Assembly (NCBI GenBank): GCA_964624535.1
Contig: CAZUXF010000003.1
Span: 104,308 to 168,307 of the forward strand
From: an uncultured Anaerolinea sp.
Lineage (GTDB): Bacteria; Chloroflexota; Anaerolineae; Anaerolineales; Anaerolineaceae
DNA length: 64,000 bases
Reading direction: 5' to 3'
Part shown: one piece after another, positions 22,560 to 33,039 of the stretch
Layout of the letters: each line of letters begins with the position of its first letter
Numbering within the stretch: position 1 is the stretch's first letter
The notes under the pieces: generated by a model
What the model was told of the DNA's origin: nothing
The model's input: the letters and a program-made list of their open reading frames with translations, nothing else
Database searches by the model: none
Position numbers and translations under genes: made by a program

Positions 22560-23726
22560 CTACTTGGCTGAGATGTATAAACTCCCGGCAGCCTTACGAG
22601 TTCGTTCATAAGGCAGCACATCCACCAATTCGTAGTCCTGGCTACCCAACCCCAATTGCTCGCCGTAACGCACCACCACGTAGGGGTCCTTGAAGGGGCC
22701 GTGCAGTTGAGAGAATGGATGCGCGTCAATTTGCTGGGCTTCCATGCAATCGGGGATGTTGTCCAGCAGCAAAGGCAGGCTGGCGGTTTTATCCAGGATA
22801 GCCTTGTCAATGGCTACGATGTCGTCCGAGCCAAAAACGCCTTCGTCGGTGAGAATGGGCATGGAGGTGAAGCCAAAGCAGTCGCACACTGGCGTCATCT
22901 GAGTGGCCAGCGCCAGGTGCGTCATCTTTTCAGGCGCGAAGGTGGAGAGGGTGATGGCGGTCGAGATCGCGCACGCCTCCTGGAAGGAGTGGAAATTGAT
23001 TGGGTCGATCTTCAGGCTGCCGGCGGGGGCTACTTCTTGGCAGCGCATGCACTGGTTGCACGGCTCAAAGTGCAAGTGCAGTTCATCGGGATCTTTCTTG
23101 TCAAACACGATGGCATTAAACGGGCACGAATCCACGATCTTCTGCATGGTCGCCCGGTCGCTGCATCTTTCTTTGAACCAATACTTGTCGTAATGATTGG
23201 TGTCATGCAGCTTGCTGCGCGTCTCGCCAACCATGCAGCCAAGGGCGATATTTTTGAAAGCCGCGCCGAAACCGCAGGAGGGGTGGCCTTTGACATGAGA
23301 AAAGTTGACCATGAAACTGGCGTCCTCGACCATACCGGCTACTTTCCAGGTCTTGATGTTTTTATATTCGCGTTCGTGATCGTAATAATACTTGTCTTTG
23401 GGTCCCGCCACCGGGAAAACCGGGCAGCCGAGCACTTCTGTTGTGTATCCGCGGGTTTCACAACCCGCCACATCCCAATCCACGTCAGCGATAAAGGGTT
23501 TGCCGCCGCCATCTTTGATCGCCTGAACTACTTTTCGAACAAACACGGGGTGTATGACCGAATAACCAATATTGTTGCCAACGTGCAACTTCAGGCAAAC
23601 CTGTTCTCCCTTGACCCGGTCTCTCAGATGTAACGCGTCCAGAACCAGGTCTAGTTTGGCGGGCAAGGTTTCTTTGGCGTCGAGCTGCGCCTGATGCGGG
23701 GAACCGTAAAATACCTTGGATTTCAT
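22560..23726 (-). CDS. DUF362 domain protein with 4Fe-4S ferredoxin-type segment
   Basis: MKSKVFYGSP...LKLHVGNN...GGKPFIADV is the typical DUF362 N-terminus. Internal Cys motifs (CPFNAI..., CNQCMRCQEVAP). Start set to ATG 23726 (SD GAGGT). Confidence 0.65.
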   Translation of the reverse strand: MKSKVFYGSPHQAQLDAKETLPAKLDLVLDALHLRDRVKGEQVCLKLHVGNNIGYSVIHPVFVRKVVQAIKDGGGKPFIADVDWDVAGCETRGYTTEVLGCPVFPVAGPKDKYYYDHEREYKNIKTWKVAGMVEDASFMVNFSHVKGHPSCGFGAAFKNIALGCMVGETRSKLHDTNHYDKYWFKERCSDRATMQKIVDSCPFNAIVFDKKDPDELHLHFEPCNQCMRCQEVAPAGSLKIDPINFHSFQEACAISTAITLSTFAPEKMTHLALATQMTPVCDCFGFTSMPILTDEGVFGSDDIVAIDKAILDKTASLPLLLDNIPDCMEAQQIDAHPFSQLHGPFKDPYVVVRYGEQLGLGSQDYELVDVLPYERTRKAAGSLYISAK

Positions 23727-24073
23727 CGGGATTACCTCTGTCGGGTTGGGATGCATTAATATTAACTATTTTAACATAACCACCAAACTCTCCTCGTTCA
23801 TTTTTATAAAAGAGGTTCTCAAAATACTGTGGTTTGCAATACAAGCTGCATTACGAGAGTTGTGCGCTCACCCTTGGATTCATAACCTTCTTTTTCTTGA
23901 CGCCTTGCTTCCTCTCCCGCGGCAAAGCGCCATGACAGACTCAAAACTTGATGCCGTGGGAGAGGGCACGGGGTGAGGGTAAATAGCCAAGGTCATAGGT
24001 GCTGATTTAGCAAATCGCGCCAGTTGACGATGTCCATACAATCCCATACACTTAATTTATCACTGGGAGGCGT

Positions 24074-24595
24074 ATGATCACTTTAAACTCCAAACGACTG
24101 GTCTTGAACCCTCTATCGCTCGAACAGCTCGAGACCGCCCTGGTTTCCATCCGCATGCTGGCCGCGAGTATGGGCGTGCCCATCGTGAGCCGGCTGCTGG
24201 ATGGCGCTGCCGAACGCGCGGTGACGATGAAGATCGAAAAAATGCGCTCCACTCCCCGCGAAAAACACCCCTGGTTTACCTATTGGTTGATCGTTTTAAA
24301 GGAGGAGAAGATCGGGGCTGGCCTGGTGGGTTTTAAAGGAACACCCAACGCCAATGGAGAGATCGAGATTGGCTATGGAATGGACGAACAGTATCAAAGG
24401 TGTGGTTACATGACCGAAGCGGTGAACGCATTGAATGAATGGGCGTTCTCTCACGCGGCGGTGCACGCGATCACAGCAACCCATGTATTAGCCAAAAATT
24501 ACGCATCACAAAAGGTGTTGATTAAAACCGGGTTCGTTGAAGAATTCTCAGACGCTGAATTCATCAACTTTGTTCTTCGCTCTAAAAATCGATGA
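24074..24595 (+). CDS. GNAT family N-acetyltransferase (RimJ/RimL-like)
   Basis: 173 aa with a GNAT core (IGYGMDEQYQRCGYMTEAVNAL). Confidence 0.65.
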   Translation: MITLNSKRLVLNPLSLEQLETALVSIRMLAASMGVPIVSRLLDGAAERAVTMKIEKMRSTPREKHPWFTYWLIVLKEEKIGAGLVGFKGTPNANGEIEIGYGMDEQYQRCGYMTEAVNALNEWAFSHAAVHAITATHVLAKNYASQKVLIKTGFVEEFSDAEFINFVLRSKNR

Positions 24596-24624
24596 TTTTT
24601 ACCAATTTCAAATTAATCAGACTC

Positions 24625-24653
24625 TTGACTTTATCGGTCGTGAAAATTAAAAT
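24625..24653 (+). promoter_or_regulatory. sigma70-type promoter TTGACT-N17-TAAAAT
   Basis: TTGACT 24625-24630, 17-nt spacer, TAAAAT 24648-24653. Predicts a roughly 350-nt leader before ATG 25014. Confidence 0.5.
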
Positions 24654-24659
24654 AAAATC

Positions 24660-24937
24660 GCTACAGACACATCATTTCGAATCAACTTCATCGAAAGAAA
24701 GGTTTTCAAATGCAATTGGAAGAGTCGGGTAACGCCAAAGACGTGCCTCCCCTTAGTTGCCGGGGATTTTTAGCGTTATCCACATTCATCGCAGACAGGG
24801 TCGTGTTGTCTGGTCATAAAAGGCGAACCAACCGCAGTTTTCAACGCGGTATGGATGCGCGTAAAGCCAGGCTCGAAGGCTCTCATGAGGTACCAGTCTG
24901 ATCAATTAAGTTGATCATCTTCGGCATGGAAACCCCG
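24660..24937 (+). promoter_or_regulatory. long structured 5' leader; possible Mg2+-responsive (M-box-like) riboswitch aptamer
   Basis: Multiple local helices. Islands reminiscent of M-box conserved segments occur in the right order: GGAAGAGTC 24718, CCAAAGACG 24735, CATAAAAGGCGA 24815, AAGGCTCTCATG 24876. My by-eye alignment is not conclusive. Confidence 0.35.
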
Positions 24938-24973
24938 CCGGCTGGTGCTTCGGTCACCAGTCGGTTATTTTTT
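24938..24973 (+). terminator. intrinsic terminator inside the leader (attenuator / expression platform)
   Basis: 10-bp stem CCGGCTGGTG/CACCAGTCGG capped by a C(UUCG)G loop, then TTATTTTTT. Sits about 30 nt upstream of SD AAAGGAGG. Confidence 0.7.
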
Positions 24974-25013
24974 AAGCGCCGCGTCCAAAGTGCAATCGAA
25001 AAAGGAGGTTATC

Positions 25014-26282
25014 ATGCCGTTTATCAGTCAACTCATTGGAAGAACCGTCGTCGACTCGGAGGGGAAAAACCTGGGTCACATCGACGAGATCCTCGCCATC
25101 CAAAAGCCAGACCATGTTCACCCAGTTTTGGTCAGCCTGGCGGTTTATGAAAAAAATCTCCTGGTGAATTACCCTATTGCGGAGGTGGCCGTTCTATTCT
25201 CGAGCGTCATCCCCCTGGCGCGCCCGAAAAATGAACTCAAAACTTACTCCCGCACAGGGGACGAGATCGAATTGATCGCCAATGTGCTGGACAAGCAGAT
25301 TATCGACACCAACGGCATTCGTGTGGTGCGGGTGAACGACCTCGAGATCGCCCATGTTAATGGTGATTACTTTGTGTCAAACGTGGATATCGGCTCAACA
25401 GGTATCTTTCGCCGCATCGGATTCAACCGGCTGGCCGAATGGTTGAACTCGGTTTTTGCAAAACGAGCCCAGACCAACATGATCTCGTGGGATTTTGTGG
25501 AGTTATTGGTGCACGACCAGTTTATGCGCTTAAAAGTGCCGGGCGAGAAGATTCGCGATCTACACCCCGCCGACCTGGCCGAACTGCTCAGCGATATGAA
25601 CCACAATGAAAGCCGCAACCTGCTGGATTCGATGGACATCGAACACCTCGCGGACGCCCTGGAAGAAGTGGAGCCGGAATTCCAGGCCACGCTGGTGCAA
25701 GGAATGAGCGACGAACGTGTGGCTGACGTGTTGGAAGAAATGTCGCCTGACGAAGCCGCTGACTTGCTGGCTGAACTGCCGGCCGAGCGCAGCGAGGACC
25801 TGCTCGAGTTGATGGAAGACCAGGAAGCCCGTGAAGTGCGCTTACTGCTTTCTTACCCCGAAGACACCGCGGGAGGCTTGATGACCACCGATGTGGCTAC
25901 CATCCGCCCCGGGTTGACCGCTGCCAAGGCCATTGAAGCCATTCGCGCCGCGGAACCGGATGCCGAGTCAATCTTCTATATTTATGTTACAGACGATGAG
26001 AACCGCCTCCTGGGTGTGTTTTCCTTAAGCGATTTGGTATTGGCCAAACCCAGCACCCAGGTAGCCAACTTTATGCATCCGAAAGTCGTCTCTGCCAATG
26101 TGCTCACCAAACAGGAAGCCCTGGCGCAACTGATCGCCAAATACAACCTGTTGACCATCCCCGTTGTCGATGACGGAAACCGCCTGCTGGGTATGGTCAC
26201 CGCGGATGACGCGCTCGACAAGATCATCCCCACCGCCTGGAAGAAAAAACTTCCGCGCTTCTATTATTACAATCGCGATTAG
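25014..26282 (+). CDS. soluble MgtE-like sensor module: PRC-barrel + MgtE N-domain + CBS pair, no membrane domain
   Basis: The acidic helical MgtE_N region (DLHPADLAELLSDM...ADVLEEMSPDEAADLLAELPAERSEDLLELM) is followed by tandem CBS (GLMTTDVATIRPG...; NLLTIPVVDDGNRLLGMVTADDALDKI). The protein ends without any hydrophobic segment. Start ATG 25014 has SD AGGAGG. Confidence 0.8.
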   Translation: MPFISQLIGRTVVDSEGKNLGHIDEILAIQKPDHVHPVLVSLAVYEKNLLVNYPIAEVAVLFSSVIPLARPKNELKTYSRTGDEIELIANVLDKQIIDTNGIRVVRVNDLEIAHVNGDYFVSNVDIGSTGIFRRIGFNRLAEWLNSVFAKRAQTNMISWDFVELLVHDQFMRLKVPGEKIRDLHPADLAELLSDMNHNESRNLLDSMDIEHLADALEEVEPEFQATLVQGMSDERVADVLEEMSPDEAADLLAELPAERSEDLLELMEDQEAREVRLLLSYPEDTAGGLMTTDVATIRPGLTAAKAIEAIRAAEPDAESIFYIYVTDDENRLLGVFSLSDLVLAKPSTQVANFMHPKVVSANVLTKQEALAQLIAKYNLLTIPVVDDGNRLLGMVTADDALDKIIPTAWKKKLPRFYYYNRD

Positions 26283-26294
26283 GGGGATGTTCGA

Positions 26295-27593
26295 ATGATG
26301 AGATCTTCCCTGCGCACCACCCTGCGCCGCTGGAGCACCCTGCCATTTGCGCGCTCCTTGATCCTGTTTTTTGGCGTTTTCGGCCCGGCCACGATCACCG
26401 CCATGGCCGATAACGACGCTGGCGGGGTGGCAACCTATTCCGTGGCGGGCGCCACGCTTGGTTACCCGGTCTTGTTCATCCTGTTGATCATCACCGTCTT
26501 GTTGGGCGTCACCCAGGAGATGGGTATGCGCCTGACCCTGGTCACCCGCCGAGGTCTGGCTGATCTGATCCGAGAGAAATTTGGCATCCGGGTTTCGCTG
26601 TTGATCTTCAGCGCCCTGCTCATCGCCAACCTGGGCACCCTCACCGTGGAACTCGCGGCGGTTAAAGTAACCAGCGGCATGCTCAATTTGCCAGCAATCC
26701 CGTTCATTTTTTTGATCGTTTTGATCGCAGGTTTGGTCGTCACCAAGGGCAATTACAAGCTCACCCAGGGCATCATGCTCGTTACCAGCCTGTTTTATCT
26801 CGCCTACATCATTTCGGCGGTCAAAGCCAAACCCGATTGGAACCTGGCTCTGACCAATATTTTCTGGCCGCATGGCGTAGAAGTAACCCCTGCCTATTTG
26901 CGCAATTATCTATTGATCGGCATGGGCGTGTTGGGAACCACCATCACTCCATGGGGACAATTTTTTATCAGCAGCTTCGCCTACGACAAGAACATTGAGG
27001 CAGGCAAGATCATCTACTCTCAACTGGAAACTTATGTGGGCGCCTTCCTGACCAATTTTTTCTCTTTTTTCATGGTCGTGGCCACCGCAGCAACCCTGTT
27101 CGTTAATAAAATCCCGCTGGTTTCAGGTGAGGCCGCTGCCATGGCGATCAAACCCTTCGCCGGAGAATTAGCCGGAACCCTGTTTGCCTTCGGCATCCTC
27201 AACGCCGGATTTATGGGATTGATCGTGGTCTCGCTCTCCACGGCATACGCGTTCGCTGAATTTTTTGGTTTGCAAGGCAGCCTGGATAGTAATTACAAAC
27301 AAAGCAAGTCGTTCTACCTGATCTTTATCGTGCAACTCTTGCTGGCAACCGTTTTCGTCATGTTCCCAGGCGTATCCCTCTTTAAACTGGCTATTATCAC
27401 CCAAACCATCAACGCGATCGCCCTTCCGCTCGTTTTTTACTACCTGATCCGCCTGGCCAACGACAAGAGTCTGATGGGTGAACACCGCAACAACGCTTTT
27501 CAAAAATGGTTCACCATAGCGGGCTCAGTTGCCATCTTTGTTGCCTCCTTGTTGACCCTGACGGCCACCTTTTTTCCACGATTGGGGCAGTAA
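26295..27593 (+). CDS. Nramp-family transporter with non-canonical metal-site motifs (NRMT-like)
   Basis: 432 aa with about 11 TM segments and Nramp-like layout. TM1 reads MADNDAGGVAT where canonical MntH has DPGN. TM6 reads GTTITPWGQFF where canonical has A-x-x-M-P-H. Confidence 0.75.
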   Translation: MMRSSLRTTLRRWSTLPFARSLILFFGVFGPATITAMADNDAGGVATYSVAGATLGYPVLFILLIITVLLGVTQEMGMRLTLVTRRGLADLIREKFGIRVSLLIFSALLIANLGTLTVELAAVKVTSGMLNLPAIPFIFLIVLIAGLVVTKGNYKLTQGIMLVTSLFYLAYIISAVKAKPDWNLALTNIFWPHGVEVTPAYLRNYLLIGMGVLGTTITPWGQFFISSFAYDKNIEAGKIIYSQLETYVGAFLTNFFSFFMVVATAATLFVNKIPLVSGEAAAMAIKPFAGELAGTLFAFGILNAGFMGLIVVSLSTAYAFAEFFGLQGSLDSNYKQSKSFYLIFIVQLLLATVFVMFPGVSLFKLAIITQTINAIALPLVFYYLIRLANDKSLMGEHRNNAFQKWFTIAGSVAIFVASLLTLTATFFPRLGQ

Positions 27594-27671: not shown

Positions 27672-27708
27672 TTGGGTATAGTACTTGAGGTTTAAGAAGG
27701 AGTACCCC

Positions 27709-28356
27709 ATGCTGCCTATCGGTGATGACAACACCCAACGCCGGATTTTCCCGATTGTGACCTACGGATTGGTCGCGATCAATATCTTCGTTTTCCTGCT
27801 TGAGCTGGTCGGCGGCGACGCATTTATCGTAAAATGGTCGTTCGTGCCTGTTCGCTTCCTTGCCAACCCGGGCGCGGATTTTATCACCCTGTTCACTTCG
27901 CTATTTATGCACGCCGGATGGATGCACCTGGGCGGTAACATGCTTTACCTGCTTATCTTCGGCGATAATGTTGAAGACCGGTTTGGCCATTTCAGATTCC
28001 TGGTTTTCTACCTGGTCGCTGGCCTGGCCGCCATGATGGCTCAATTCTTCGTATCGATGACCACCAACATTCCCAACCTGGGTGCATCTGGCGCCATCGC
28101 AGGTGTGCTGGCGGCTTACCTGCTGCTCTTCCCAGGCCGGCGGGTGCGCGTATTAGTCATGGCCTGGATCGTGACCCTGCCCGCCCTGTTGGTCATCGGC
28201 GCCTGGATTGTGATCCAACTGATCAGCGGAATGGGCACCATCTCTACAACGGCGGATACCGGCGGGGTGGCGTATATGGCGCACATCGGTGGATTCGCGG
28301 CAGGGTTTCTGCTAACCTTATTCATGCGCAAACGCGCGAGACCGGCTTACTACTAA
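27709..28356 (+). CDS. rhomboid family intramembrane serine protease
   Basis: GASGAIAGVLAAY (GxSG) and AHIGGF motifs with six hydrophobic segments. ATG 27709 has SD AAGGAG. Confidence 0.85.
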   Translation: MLPIGDDNTQRRIFPIVTYGLVAINIFVFLLELVGGDAFIVKWSFVPVRFLANPGADFITLFTSLFMHAGWMHLGGNMLYLLIFGDNVEDRFGHFRFLVFYLVAGLAAMMAQFFVSMTTNIPNLGASGAIAGVLAAYLLLFPGRRVRVLVMAWIVTLPALLVIGAWIVIQLISGMGTISTTADTGGVAYMAHIGGFAAGFLLTLFMRKRARPAYY

Positions 28357-30155: not shown

Positions 30156-30189
30156 TTCAATTCTGATCAAAAAAACAGGAGCCCACAAA

Positions 30190-33039
30190 ATGAGTTCTCA
30201 ACCCCCAAATTCCGCGCCCAAAAAAGCGGAGGATTATTCGGTTACTTGGTACGCTCTTAGTCCTCACGAAGTTCTGGAGAAACTGGAAACCAAGCAAGAC
30301 CAAGGGTTATCCACCGCTGAGGTTGAACGCCGCCAGCAGATCCACGGCTTGAACCAGTTGCGCGAGAAACCGCGTCCATCGTTCTTGCAACTTGTTCTCG
30401 CCCAGTTAAAATCTTTTGTAGTGATCTTGTTGATCGTCGCCTCGGTAATCTCAATGATCCTGGGCGAGTGGGTAGATTCAGGCGCGATCTTGTTGATCGT
30501 GGTCTTAAACGCCATCCTGGGCGTGGTGCAGGAATCCCGGGCGGAAGAAGCCCTGGCCGCGTTGAAACGCATGGCTGCCCCTGATGCCCAGGTGTTGCGT
30601 GATGGCAAACGCCTGTCAATCCCGGCGGCCCAACTCGTACCCGGTGATATCGTTTACCTCGAGGCTGGCAATTTTGTTCCTGCTGACCTGCGCTTGTTGG
30701 AAGCCGTCAATATGCGGGTTGAAGAAGCCGCGCTCACCGGAGAATCCGTCCCGGTTCAAAAGAACGCGATGCTCACCCTCGAAGCCGGCTCCTCGCTGGG
30801 TGACCGCAAGAACACTGTCTTCATGGGAACCGTCATCTCTTACGGACGCGGACACGGAGTTGTTACCAGCACCGGGATGCATACTCAGTTGGGGTTGATC
30901 GCCAATATGCTTCAATCAGTGGCGGAAGAAGAAACCCCGCTTCAAAAACGGCTTGATCAACTTGGTAAAACTCTTGGCTGGGCTTGTTTGATCGTCTGCG
31001 CCGTGGTCTTCGGGGTCGGAATCCTCCAAGGTGGTAACCCCTTGGAATTGTTCATGATTGCCGTCAGTCTGGCAATCGCGGCCGTCCCTGAAGGATTGCC
31101 CGCTATCGTAACCATCAGCCTGGCGTTGGGAATGCGTGAAATGATCAAACGCCACGCACTCATTCGCCGGCTTTCCTCGGTGGAAACCCTGGGTTCTGCC
31201 ACTGTGATCTGTTCTGACAAGACCGGTACCCTTACCCAAAATGAAATGACAGTTACCCGCATCTGGGTGGACGGACAATTTATTGAAGTCACTGGCCAGG
31301 GGTACGACCCGCGCGGTGAGTTCCAGATCAATCAAAAAAATGTAGATCTTGATAAATTCCCCGCTGTTCGCACTGCGCTGTGGGTTGGCGCCATCAACAA
31401 CGATTCCGTGCTCGAAGAATCTCTCGAAGAGGGAGGCACCAGCCAATACCGCATGGTGGGTGACCCTACTGAAGGTTCAATTCTCGTGGCTGCTTACAAA
31501 GCCGGTGCAGGCTCAAAAGCATTAAGCAACGCCTACCCCCGGCGCAACGAGATCCCATTCGATTCAGACCGAAAGCGTATGGTCACCATTCATAGCATCG
31601 AAGATCCACGCCTGGAAGATATTTCGCCCTTCATCGATCAAACGTTTAAGAATAAACATGTCGTGGCGGTTAAAGGCGCGCCGGATGTAGTTTTGAAATT
31701 GTGTTCAAAGATCCAGTCCCTGGACAATCGTTCAGCACATCCGCTGGATGATGCCGCCCGCAACCAGATCCTGGAAGCTAACGACCAGATGACCCGTGGA
31801 GCCCTGCGTGTTTTGGGTGTCGCCTTCCGCCTGGAAGATGATCTGCCCGCGGAGCTGGTCAGCCATGAACTTGAAAAAGACCTCATCTTTGCTGGTTTGA
31901 TCGGCATGATCGACCCTGCAAGACCGGAGGTCAAACCCGCGCTGCTCACCGCCGCGAAAGCTGGCATCCGCACCTTGATGATCACCGGAGATTACCCCAA
32001 CACCGCGCGCGCGATTGCCGAAAGTATCGGTTTACTCCGCCCTGGGCACAAGGTTCTCACCGGCGCCCAATTAGACGAGATTGACGACAAGCAATTGCTC
32101 AAAGAAGTTGAACTGACTGACGTTTTCGCGCGGGTTTCACCCGAACACAAGATGCGGATCGTCAACGCCCTGCAAGCTAATGGAGAAGTGGTAGCGATGA
32201 CCGGCGACGGTGTCAACGATGCCCCGGCCATCAAACAGGCTGACATCGGTGTCTCGATGGGAATCACGGGCACAGACGTGGCCAAAGATACAGCCGACAT
32301 GGTACTCACCGATGACAACTACGTCAGCATTGTTTCGGCGGTTGAACAAGGCCGTATCATTTACGCGAACATTCGGAAGTTCGTCTACTACCTGATCTCT
32401 TGCAACCTGGGTGAAATTCTGATCATTTTCCTGCCAACCGCTTTTGGGCGTTTGCTCTTCCCGCAACTTACCACCGAGCAGCTTTCACCTCTCGTTCCAG
32501 TTCAATTGTTGTGGTTGAACCTGATTTCTGACGGCGCCCCAGCCCTGGCTCTCGGAACGGAAAAAGGTGACCCCGACATTATGGATCAAGCCCCACGCCC
32601 ACCCAAGGAACCGATCATCAATAAGCAGATGGCCATGGGCGTAGTCTTGCAGACTCTCGCGATCGCTGGTGTTACCCTCTTCGCTTTTTGGCGTGGGCTT
32701 ACCCATACGGAGCTACCCCTCGACCAACGCCTTCCGCTGGCTGAGACCATGGCCTTCGTTACCCTAAGCGCGTCAGAACTGCTGCGAGCCTTCACCGCCA
32801 GGTCCGAGAGATACCCACTTCTCAAGATCGGTATTTTCTCGAACAAGTGGATGAACCTGGCTGTCTTGGCTTCGCTCTTCTTGTTATTGTGTGTCGTTTA
32901 CATACCGTTCCTCAACCCGGTGTTTTCAACCACCCCGTTGAGTTTACGAGAGTGGACGCTCGTTCTTCCACTGCTGCTCATCCCCGCTATCGTGGCCGAA
33001 CTCACCAAGTGGCTGATCTACCGCAAAGCAAACAAGTAA
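30190..33039 (+). CDS. cation-translocating P-type ATPase (P2, Ca2+-ATPase-like)
   Basis: DKTGTLT phosphorylation site plus TGES, MITGD and GDGVNDAPAIK motifs, with 10 TM segments. ATG 30190 has SD CAGGAG. Confidence 0.85.
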   Translation: MSSQPPNSAPKKAEDYSVTWYALSPHEVLEKLETKQDQGLSTAEVERRQQIHGLNQLREKPRPSFLQLVLAQLKSFVVILLIVASVISMILGEWVDSGAILLIVVLNAILGVVQESRAEEALAALKRMAAPDAQVLRDGKRLSIPAAQLVPGDIVYLEAGNFVPADLRLLEAVNMRVEEAALTGESVPVQKNAMLTLEAGSSLGDRKNTVFMGTVISYGRGHGVVTSTGMHTQLGLIANMLQSVAEEETPLQKRLDQLGKTLGWACLIVCAVVFGVGILQGGNPLELFMIAVSLAIAAVPEGLPAIVTISLALGMREMIKRHALIRRLSSVETLGSATVICSDKTGTLTQNEMTVTRIWVDGQFIEVTGQGYDPRGEFQINQKNVDLDKFPAVRTALWVGAINNDSVLEESLEEGGTSQYRMVGDPTEGSILVAAYKAGAGSKALSNAYPRRNEIPFDSDRKRMVTIHSIEDPRLEDISPFIDQTFKNKHVVAVKGAPDVVLKLCSKIQSLDNRSAHPLDDAARNQILEANDQMTRGALRVLGVAFRLEDDLPAELVSHELEKDLIFAGLIGMIDPARPEVKPALLTAAKAGIRTLMITGDYPNTARAIAESIGLLRPGHKVLTGAQLDEIDDKQLLKEVELTDVFARVSPEHKMRIVNALQANGEVVAMTGDGVNDAPAIKQADIGVSMGITGTDVAKDTADMVLTDDNYVSIVSAVEQGRIIYANIRKFVYYLISCNLGEILIIFLPTAFGRLLFPQLTTEQLSPLVPVQLLWLNLISDGAPALALGTEKGDPDIMDQAPRPPKEPIINKQMAMGVVLQTLAIAGVTLFAFWRGLTHTELPLDQRLPLAETMAFVTLSASELLRAFTARSERYPLLKIGIFSNKWMNLAVLASLFLLLCVVYIPFLNPVFSTTPLSLREWTLVLPLLLIPAIVAELTKWLIYRKANK

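Follow-up and report, generated by a model that had tools for sequence, protein, structure and literature searches.

An mgtE-like/nrmT operon with a putative uORF attenuator in an uncultured Anaerolinea, in which a soluble partner may gate an Nramp-related transporter in trans

Why would a soluble protein built like the cytoplasmic, Mg2+-sensing half of the MgtE channel be encoded immediately upstream of a transporter with an unrelated fold? This question is raised by two neighbouring genes, here called gene 1 and gene 2, in a stretch of 64,000 nucleotides from an uncultured Anaerolinea sp. of the phylum Chloroflexota (GenBank assembly GCA_964624535.1, contig CAZUXF010000003.1, positions 104,308 to 168,307 of the forward strand), which we will henceforth refer to as the window. 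An earlier note, made from the letters of the window alone, had described gene 1 as a pore-less MgtE-type sensor and gene 2 as a transporter of the Nramp-related NRMT clade, and had proposed that the former regulates the latter. We found that the locus is a real, strongly conserved two-gene operon, and that its pairing has been known since 2014. The new points are incremental: the PRC-barrel N-terminus that nearly every full-length partner carries, the charge-reversed tail, the breadth of the pairing, which includes Candidate Phyla Radiation (CPR) bacteria and DPANN archaea, and a putative upstream open reading frame (uORF) attenuator in the place where relatives have an M-box. Taken as a whole, we read the locus as an mgtE-like/nrmT cation-uptake operon in which the gene 1 product (hereafter the partner) would gate the transporter in trans and the leader would act as an attenuator, a reading to which we assign a probability of roughly 0.55.

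Gene 1 encodes a PRC-barrel region, an MgtE N-domain and a CBS pair without any transmembrane (TM) helix, which agrees with the earlier note and is based on Pfam profiles, the match to a solved structure and an AlphaFold2 (AF2) model. Specifically, the Pfam PRC-barrel family PF05239 was matched with 27.6 bits (gathering cut-off 21.2), the MgtE_N domain with 94.2 bits and the two CBS domains with 66 bits; when the N-terminus was searched alone, PRC scored 31 bits in two stretches. The NCBIfam mgtE model (TIGR00400) was matched over profile positions 18-252 of 450 only, meaning that gene 1 lacks the pore half, and the match scored 193.5, less than the equivalog cut-off of 232.75. Given the absence of the five-helix C-terminal pore domain of MgtE, gene 1 is not an MgtE channel. 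Among solved structures, the cytosolic domain of Thermus MgtE (2YVY) comes closest to it (E 2e-44). Neither a hydrophobicity scan nor the AF2 model revealed a transmembrane helix in gene 1: the single hydrophobic window of 19 aa (aa 49-67) is a beta-strand of the PRC barrel in the model, and the protein ends 17 aa past the CBS pair. The model shows an all-beta barrel for aa 1-90 (predicted local distance difference test, pLDDT, ~80-95) and is confident for the MgtE_N and CBS parts. Judged by these profiles and the model, gene 1 encodes the cytoplasmic module of MgtE without the pore, to which a PRC-barrel region of ~175 aa, absent from MgtE, has been added. Across 27 aligned Anaerolineae homologues the mean column identity was 77% and the tail, LDKIIPTAWKK[KR]LPRFY, was invariant.

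Gene 2 begins twelve nucleotides downstream of gene 1 (TAG at 26280-26282, ATG at 26295), as the earlier note had stated. It matches the Nramp/LeuT-type fold PF01566 over profile positions 1-356 of 357 (E 1.1e-66, Pfam) and has ~10 hydrophobic segments. Among solved structures it is by far closest to EleNRMT of Eggerthella lenta (PDB 7QIA; 217.6 bits, E 3e-63), with the next-best relative at 75 bits and canonical MntH/DMT structures at ~33 bits (E ~1e-7); the NCBIfam MntH model scored 84.7 bits against a cut-off of 430. All four residues of the EleNRMT site (D55, G58, T224 and Q379) are present in gene 2 (D41, G44, T215 and Q370), and the glutamate of alpha3 is kept (E133 in EleNRMT, E119 in gene 2). 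In EleNRMT these four residues matter for Mn2+/Mg2+ transport and the substitution T224A abolished Mg2+ transport (PMC8806188). The D-A-G-G motif of gene 2, which aligns with D55-A-G-G58 of EleNRMT and is shared by 61 of 84 tabulated NRMT sequences, replaces the metal-ligand Asn of the canonical D-P-G-N by Gly, while the position of the canonical Met is taken by Thr218 (Ala227 in EleNRMT). The altered TM1 (D-A-G-G) and TM6 (T-P-W) signatures and the missing thioether Met that the earlier note had read from the sequence were thus all recovered in the alignment to EleNRMT, as was the proposed placement in the NRMT clade; a neighbour-joining tree put the window protein among the NRMTs of Anaerolineae.

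The two transporters also share the loss of the first alpha6b His of proton-coupled Nramps, which is W220 in gene 2 and Trp in EleNRMT too, pointing to proton-uncoupled Mg2+/Mn2+ transport. EleNRMT carries Mg2+ and Mn2+ and not Ca2+, and shows no proton coupling (PMC8806188). They differ in TM6b, which reads PWMMFF in EleNRMT and PWGQFF in gene 2, and the work on EleNRMT (PMC8806188) was done on the transporter by itself, with no partner protein. From these alignments gene 2 is a member of the NRMT clade of the SLC11/Nramp family and, by homology, probably a proton-uncoupled importer of divalent cations; its ion preference can be no more than suggested by this comparison, because the identity to EleNRMT is just 33%.

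To place the gene pair in a wider context, we surveyed the neighbourhoods of NRMT genes. Briefly, diverse NRMT representatives were aligned, an alignment of 11 NRMT sequences and the pattern TT[IV][TA][PA][WY][GM]QF were used to find loci, and the open reading frames (ORFs) of 80 loci on one-genome-per-species contigs were searched with gene 1 profiles. Because the pattern excludes EleNRMT-like PWMMFF proteins, the survey is biased to the subfamily of the window protein. Three of the 80 loci were cut by contig ends and uninformative. In 62 of the remaining 77 the NRMT gene was directly preceded by a co-oriented, pore-less MgtE_N/CBS gene, with a gap of ~0-120 nt, and the number rose to 69 when partner genes up to 5 kb away were counted (i.e., 7 beyond the 62 adjacent ones). 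Likewise, all seven independent metagenomic contigs with gene 1 homologues carried an Nramp (NRMT) gene 15-20 nt downstream. The surveyed loci belong to Chloroflexota, many lineages of CPR/Patescibacteria, Actinomycetota, Bacillota, Armatimonadota, Nitrospirota, Acidobacteriota, Planctomycetes and DPANN archaea. The adjacency is far above chance, and the pair recurs in other genomes, on which the earlier note had made its proposal depend. A terminator scan found no terminator-like site in the 12-nt spacer between gene 1 and gene 2; the three weak (5-7 bp) matches inside gene 1 were not above those in shuffled sequence.

The survey also defined the partner as a protein family. Partners are 405-430 aa long (~420 aa), begin with M-x-[FY]-[FILV]-S in almost every lineage and, in nearly all full-length cases, have a first ~175 aa detectably matching the PRC region of gene 1; this pore-less architecture with its PRC N-terminus is conserved in thousands of database proteins. 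The C-terminal end is more variable: Thermoleophilia and one archaeal locus have tails like that of gene 1, those of Nitrospirota are basic with another sequence, and CPR partners have no basic tail. Among the surveyed loci, tail type showed no simple correlation with the TM6 motif of the NRMT. Neither gene 1 nor gene 2 reaches the cut-off of any NCBIfam model, and public names are misleading: the partner is often called 'magnesium transporter (MgtE)' and the NRMT 'Mn2+/Fe2+ NRAMP family transporter' or 'Mn transporter'.

The earlier note had regarded the arrangement as undescribed, which is not the case. Shin et al. (2014, PLoS Genet, PMC4072509) defined NrmT, reported that most NrmT genes follow a gene for a homologue of the MgtE N-terminal cytoplasmic domain, and speculated that the latter might serve in cytoplasmic feedback regulation or as a metal chaperone, so that both the pairing and the feedback idea precede our analysis. 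Their operons resemble that of the window in having the MgtE-cytoplasmic-domain gene directly upstream of, and co-oriented with, the Nramp-related transporter gene, and in our survey an Acidobacteriaceae locus (L072) has an adjacent 420-aa partner. They differ in that the window operon has no M-box and carries a putative uORF attenuator instead. The text of that paper (PMC4072509) contains neither 'CBS' nor 'PRC-barrel' and describes the gene just as a small ORF with homology to the cytoplasmic domain of MgtE; the PRC-barrel region and the basic tail are unmentioned. We found no later literature on the partner: the EleNRMT paper, the Nramp analysis of Cellier (2022) and two reviews, one on transporter regulation (2023) and one on Mg2+ transporters (2026), are silent on it.

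Some loci vary this arrangement. In the patescibacterial locus L028 (105-1350) the partner is present as two ORFs, the PRC region and N-domain followed by the CBS pair; this resembles the Ca_c0685 operon of Clostridium acetobutylicum, in which the partner is split into two genes (PMC4072509), and could alternatively be an assembly frameshift. Two chloroflexotal loci contain a full-length mgtE as well, in the order M-box, mgtE, partner, nrmT (L017, 1531-6209) or partner, mgtE, nrmT (L069, 2241-6197), and given this combination the partner might serve more than one transporter. The NRMTs of CPR loci (L013 and L016 of Roizmanbacteria; L015 and L019-L023, labelled Gammaproteobacteria) form the sister group of those of Anaerolineae, and the L013 protein is 66% identical to the window protein, which together suggest that the gene has moved laterally between Chloroflexota and CPR. 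Several metagenome-assembled genomes named 'uncultured Gammaproteobacteria' cluster with CPR sequences, and their labels may be wrong.

If the partner is a sensor, the residues with which MgtE binds Mg2+ might be expected in it. We mapped the sites of Thermus thermophilus (Tt) MgtE onto the partner by pairwise alignment with 2YVY and then counted residues over 70 partner proteins, taking the MgtE sites from PMC5882242 and PMC5529423 and their roles from the former. Asp is kept at the positions of D91 (56 of the 70 partners), D247 (58; both Mg4) and D95 (64; Mg6), and the position of E59 (Mg7) holds Asp or Glu in 50; the position of D250 (Mg5) is acidic in most of the partner sequences that align there. 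In MgtE, these are the sites that hold the N-domain closed against the CBS domains when Mg2+ is high (PMC5882242). The partner thus resembles the MgtE cytoplasmic domain (2YVY/2YVX/5X9G) in its N-domain and CBS pair, in the ligands of Mg4, Mg6 and Mg7, and in D250.

The leader upstream of gene 1 (Table 1) holds a uORF followed by alternative RNA helices. Homologues of the uORF with the same leader layout, and with no M-box, were found in L003, L012 and L083-L088. Its N-terminus is conserved (M-Q-L-E-E-[ST]-x-x-S-K-D-V-P-P-L-S), while the peptide is otherwise variable and 37-63 aa long. Within the KDVPPLS codons we counted 38 pairwise synonymous and 0 nonsynonymous differences. Changes at third codon positions were ~2x as frequent as those at first or second positions. 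Seven of eight uORFs stop at one aligned TGA and the remaining one (L085) three columns further. In the alignment of 8 sequences the antiterminator helix was 90.6% paired and 5 of its 8 pairs showed compensatory changes, the terminator helix was 93% paired with 5 compensatory pairs, and the small hairpin was 79% paired with 2 compensatory pairs. Slid controls, scored on whole two-helix structures (each including the small hairpin), were 19-50% paired overall; the antiterminator plus small hairpin reached 85.7%, compared with 24-50% in its controls. The terminator forms in the minimum free energy (MFE) fold of the leader (z = -2.8) and excludes the antiterminator, since positions 24942-24949 are part of the 5' arm of the terminator. 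The leader therefore contains a pair of mutually exclusive terminator and antiterminator helices coupled to a uORF that is conserved as a peptide. In the protein database the uORF, deposited as an unnamed 63-aa hypothetical protein, has 3 entries; given that small ORFs are seldom called, this number is uninformative on its distribution.

Table 1. Positions of the operon features within the window
Feature	Positions	Strand	Details
Leader upstream of gene 1	24596-25013	+	418 nt; starts after the acetyltransferase stop codon
Sigma-70-like promoter	24625-24653	+	TTGACT, 17-nt spacer, TAAAAT; consensus scan 10/12; pattern match only
uORF (leader peptide)	24710-24901	+	MQLEESGNAKDVPPLSCRGF... (MQLEESGNAKDVPPLS...); 63 codons; Shine-Dalgarno-like GAAAGG upstream
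Codons of the conserved heptapeptide K-D-V-P-P-L-S	24737-24757	+	within the uORF
Antiterminator, 5' strand	24889-24896	+	GGUACCAG; last three uORF sense codons; pairs with 24942-24949
Small hairpin	24899-24917	+	UGAUCAA-UUAAG-UUGAUCA; includes the uORF stop; in the MFE fold
Intrinsic terminator	24937-24973	+	11-bp stem (7 G-C pairs) at 24937-24965, then UUAUUUUUU; terminator scan
Gene 1	25014-26282	+	422 aa; stop TAG 26280-26282; GGAGG at 25004-25008
Gene 1, PRC region	25014-25538	+	aa 1-175
Gene 1, MgtE_N	25560-25865	+	aa 183-284
Gene 1, CBS pair	25878-26228	+	aa 289-405
Gene 1, invariant basic tail	26223-26264	+	aa 404-417; IIPTAWKKKLPRFY
Intercistronic spacer	26283-26294	+	12 nt; GGGGGA ribosome-binding site of gene 2
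Gene 2, NRMT-type Nramp-related divalent cation transporter	26295-27593	+	432 aa; ATG 26295
Gene 2, TM1 motif	26415-26426	+	D41-A-G-G44
Gene 2, TM6 motif	26937-26954	+	T215-T-I-T218-P-W220
Gene 2, TM10 residue			Q370
Gene 2, alpha3 residue			E119

No M-box (RF00380) or other riboswitch was detected anywhere in the window at Rfam gathering thresholds, and a search of 24400-25200 at E values up to 5 returned two chance snoRNA matches and no M-box. The leader does not fit any Rfam family. In related operons the same kind of uORF occurs together with the riboswitch. Specifically, a composite leader (L006, 3275-3735; also L007, L008, L010, L014 and L034) runs from an M-box with its terminator through a uORF and a second terminator to the partner gene. 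The uORF of these relatives is shorter and homologous, has a strong Shine-Dalgarno sequence and begins M-D-A-D-[GS], with I-P-L-S in some, and in L006 and L010 its stop codon lies inside the terminator loop. The uORF element thus co-exists with a riboswitch in the M-box relatives and stands alone in the lineage of the window.

The geometry of the leader suggests classical ribosome-dependent attenuation, in which, as in trp-type and mgtL/mgtP attenuators, the position of the ribosome would choose between terminator and antiterminator. On the basis of the Pro-Pro codons and of the analogy with mgtL, read-through would respond to a physiological signal by way of ribosome stalling. The leaders of mgtA (mgtL) and mgtCBR (mgtP) are similar in that a short uORF with conserved Pro codons precedes a cation-transport operon. 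Translation of the acidic and proline codons of mgtL, the closest analogue, reportedly fails at low Mg2+ and thereby switches mgtA on, as Park (2010) and Gall (2016) are said to have found. There is a further likeness to mgtA of Salmonella and other enterobacteria in the M-box relatives, which combine a uORF with a Mg2+-sensing RNA in one leader. By contrast, the peptides differ (MEPDPTPLP in MgtL, MQLEES..KDVPPLS here), the phylum is Chloroflexota, and the terminator is intrinsic here, whereas that of mgtA is Rho-dependent.

How might these parts work together? We propose that the widened NRMT site, which has neither Met nor Asn, takes hydrated Mg2+ and also Mn2+, and that the protein, like EleNRMT, is probably a uniporter that draws on the membrane potential and is not coupled to protons. 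Because such an uncoupled importer could overload the cell, a soluble sensor would be encoded in the same operon. At high cytosolic Mg2+ the acidic ligands would clamp the N-domain and CBS pair of gene 1 into a compact form, and this Mg2+-bound form may dock on the transporter from the cytoplasmic side, thereby slowing or blocking transport. Docking could take place through the PRC-barrel N-terminus, through the invariant basic-aromatic tail that replaces the acidic plug helix, or through both, and the net effect would be MgtE-style feedback gating in trans. The KtrAB and TrkAH systems for K+ uptake offer a precedent, in that a soluble cytoplasmic ligand sensor, encoded beside the membrane subunit, gates the transporter in trans; they differ in the sensor (nucleotide-binding RCK/KTN rings), the ion and the fold, and in that the interaction is proven there and predicted here. 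The 5' leader would then be a second regulatory layer, supplied by the M-box in other lineages and by the putative ribosome-dependent attenuator in the window. A ribosome at the uORF stop codon would cover the antiterminator strand, allowing the terminator to form and turning the operon off, while a ribosome stalled at the D-V-P-P-L-S codons would leave the antiterminator free and the operon on. Stalling would be expected when Mg2+, prolyl-tRNA or elongation factor P (EF-P) activity is low, as for enterobacterial mgtL and mgtP. Trans-gating of the NRMT by its partner is the model that the sequence data support best.

Several observations weigh against this reading. Some concern substitutions in the sensor: the acidic ligands of the plug helix, Tt E258/D259, correspond to K410/K411 within the basic tail, the Mg5 ligand D226 is Asn in the window protein and mostly Asn among partners, and the adenine-stacking F227 is Leu in the window protein, as in 58 of the 70 partners. 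It follows that the gating details of MgtE are not transferable. With R187 of the ATP site replaced by Ser in the window protein in addition to the change of F227, MgtE-like modulation by ATP is doubtful. Taking these substitutions together with the extra PRC region of ~175 aa, we cannot follow the earlier note in calling the gating apparatus of MgtE 'complete'; rather, the alignments describe a partner that has kept the domain-closure sensor and rebuilt the output end, and that would act on an unrelated LeuT-fold carrier instead of its own channel. The AF2 model is poor for aa 95-176 (the second PRC stretch) and for the C-terminal tail, and the physical interaction between partner and NRMT is itself a prediction. 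Among the informative loci, 8 of 77 (~10%) have no partner within 5 kb. The NrmT of C. acetobutylicum (PMC4072509) and EleNRMT (PMC8806188) transport without a partner, and co-expression of Acidobacterium capsulatum Acp2976/Acp2977, the one pair examined in this way, had no further effect on the rescue of a Mg2+-transport mutant (PMC4072509); moreover, the A. capsulatum NrmT rescued a Mn2+-uptake mutant and behaved as a Mn2+ importer (PMC4072509). For the leader, the absence of an M-box from the window operon and the N-terminus of the uORF, weakly rich in D, E and P compared with MgtL, point in the same direction. The experiment of 2014 scored growth rescue and not protection from overload, the phenotype that a negative gate would be expected to show; in MgtE, loss of gating causes hypersensitivity to Co2+ and Ni2+ while complementation is normal (PMC5529423).

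The first alternative to be considered is that the operon serves mainly the uptake of Mn2+ (or of mixed transition metals) and that the partner senses Mn2+, with the architecture unchanged. The A. capsulatum NRMT, which has an adjacent partner and no M-box, rescued a Mn2+ mutant fully and a Mg2+ mutant weakly (PMC4072509), EleNRMT carries Mn2+ besides Mg2+ (PMC8806188), and the window operon has no M-box either. The earlier note had deduced an uptake system for Mg2+ (or another hard cation) from the transporter motifs, and these data separate the two parts of that claim: the NRMT identity stands, while selectivity for Mg2+ does not follow from it, given that EleNRMT carries both ions and the A. 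capsulatum homologue imports Mn2+. Indirect evidence on the ion comes instead from regulation in relatives. Of 13 loci spread over the phylogeny, 6 have an M-box immediately before the partner gene (L036, L037, L049, where it is tandem, L063, L065 and L079), as do the six Anaerolineae loci with composite leaders; in L017 the M-box lies ~2 kb upstream, before the full-length mgtE that precedes the partner, which brings the Rfam total to 13 related operons. Where measured, the NRMTs of Anaerolineae-type loci with an M-box are 66-71% identical to the window protein, and they lie in the same clade of the neighbour-joining tree. The TM1 and TM6 motifs of the window protein (ADNDAGG and GTTITPWGQFF) are identical to those of the M-box-controlled L036, whereas the Acidobacteria-type NRMTs, kin of the Mn2+-preferring A. 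capsulatum protein, read VDNDAGG and PWMQFY. The yybP-ykoY Mn2+ riboswitch was absent from the window and from the 38 related loci scanned with Rfam (of 88 loci). Given the M-box relatives, the shared motifs and the placement in the tree, we favour Mg2+ as a physiological substrate of the window NRMT, with Mn2+ possible as well, and we consider a primarily Mn2+-directed operon unlikely.

A second alternative changes the role of the partner, which would be a cytoplasmic metallochaperone or buffer for the ion carried by the NRMT, or a relay to another target, e.g., the ribosome. PRC-barrels are a general protein-binding fold, and those of the RimM type bind ribosomal proteins. Gene 1 has a weak match to RimM (E 0.005, NCBIfam), a hint at most; a chaperone was among the roles raised by Shin et al. 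(PMC4072509), and NRMT transport works without the partner (PMC4072509, PMC8806188). Set against this are the tight coupling in the operon, with gaps of 0-120 nt across phyla, which points to a stoichiometric partnership with the transporter, and the identity of the residues kept, which are those for the Mg2+-dependent closure of the N-domain on the CBS pair that MgtE uses in gating. Hydrated Mg2+ is, furthermore, present at millimolar level and needs no chaperone. We therefore rate this alternative as somewhat less probable still than the Mn2+ one. Finally, the idea that the adjacency is meaningless and gene 1 a decayed or truncated mgtE pseudogene beside an unrelated Nramp gene, which the missing pore and the frequent automatic label 'magnesium transporter MgtE' might suggest, is refuted by the conservation data, i.e., the PRC architecture of 405-430 aa in thousands of proteins, the 77% mean column identity over 27 homologues, the position of the partner upstream of the NRMT in most loci of many phyla, and the full-length mgtE that L017 and L069 carry besides the partner.

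Returning to trans-gating by the partner, NRMTs are proton-uncoupled importers of the most abundant divalent cation of the cell, and the nature of the partner bears on how overload is controlled. The partner is a defined and widespread family of ~420-aa proteins, in which a PRC barrel is joined to an MgtE N-domain and a CBS pair and, in many cases, to a basic tail; it accompanies the NRMT from DPANN archaea and CPR to Firmicutes with the residues of the Mg2+ clamp kept. The survey makes trans-gating a concrete hypothesis with defined candidate docking elements. If true, this would be the first MgtE-type sensor to control an unrelated transporter fold in trans. The leader attenuator, if it works as proposed, would be a further case of ribosome-based control of a cation-transport operon outside Proteobacteria, and the KDVPPLS leader would be the Chloroflexota counterpart, in one lineage of Anaerolineae, of enterobacterial MgtL. 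The stronger, joint statement, namely that the partner is a detachable gating subunit of the NRMT and that the KDVPPLS attenuator has replaced the M-box and reads Mg2+ through stalling, is one that we offer tentatively and would sooner doubt than assert. In practical terms, the mis-annotation of both genes distorts predictions of metal homeostasis in uncultured lineages.

Two neighbouring genes were considered as further components and rejected. A rhomboid protease gene (27685-28356) follows the NRMT gene by ~90 nt and encodes no extra sensing domain; in Bacillus subtilis the rhomboid YqgP cleaves MgtE and so regulates Mg2+ uptake (PMC10710835). Its synteny is restricted to L003, L083 and L084 and to the L001 and L002 contigs, which carry the window's own NRMT, and we do not regard it as a conserved component. 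The product of a P-type ATPase gene four genes downstream (30187-33039), a candidate for MgtA, is of the Ca2+ type (PMR1/SERCA-like), with scores just under the equivalog cut-offs. Genes 1 and 2 share a reading frame (26280-26297) with one TAG and four codons between them, such that read-through would yield a fusion protein; since the spacing in relatives is 15-20 nt and the frame is not always kept, this is probably due to chance. Upstream of the leader, which in each case begins past the stop codon of the acetyltransferase gene, lie a DUF362-family gene on the minus strand and a GNAT acetyltransferase gene (22560-24595), which are syntenic in L086 and L088, while L084 and L087 have the GNAT gene only.

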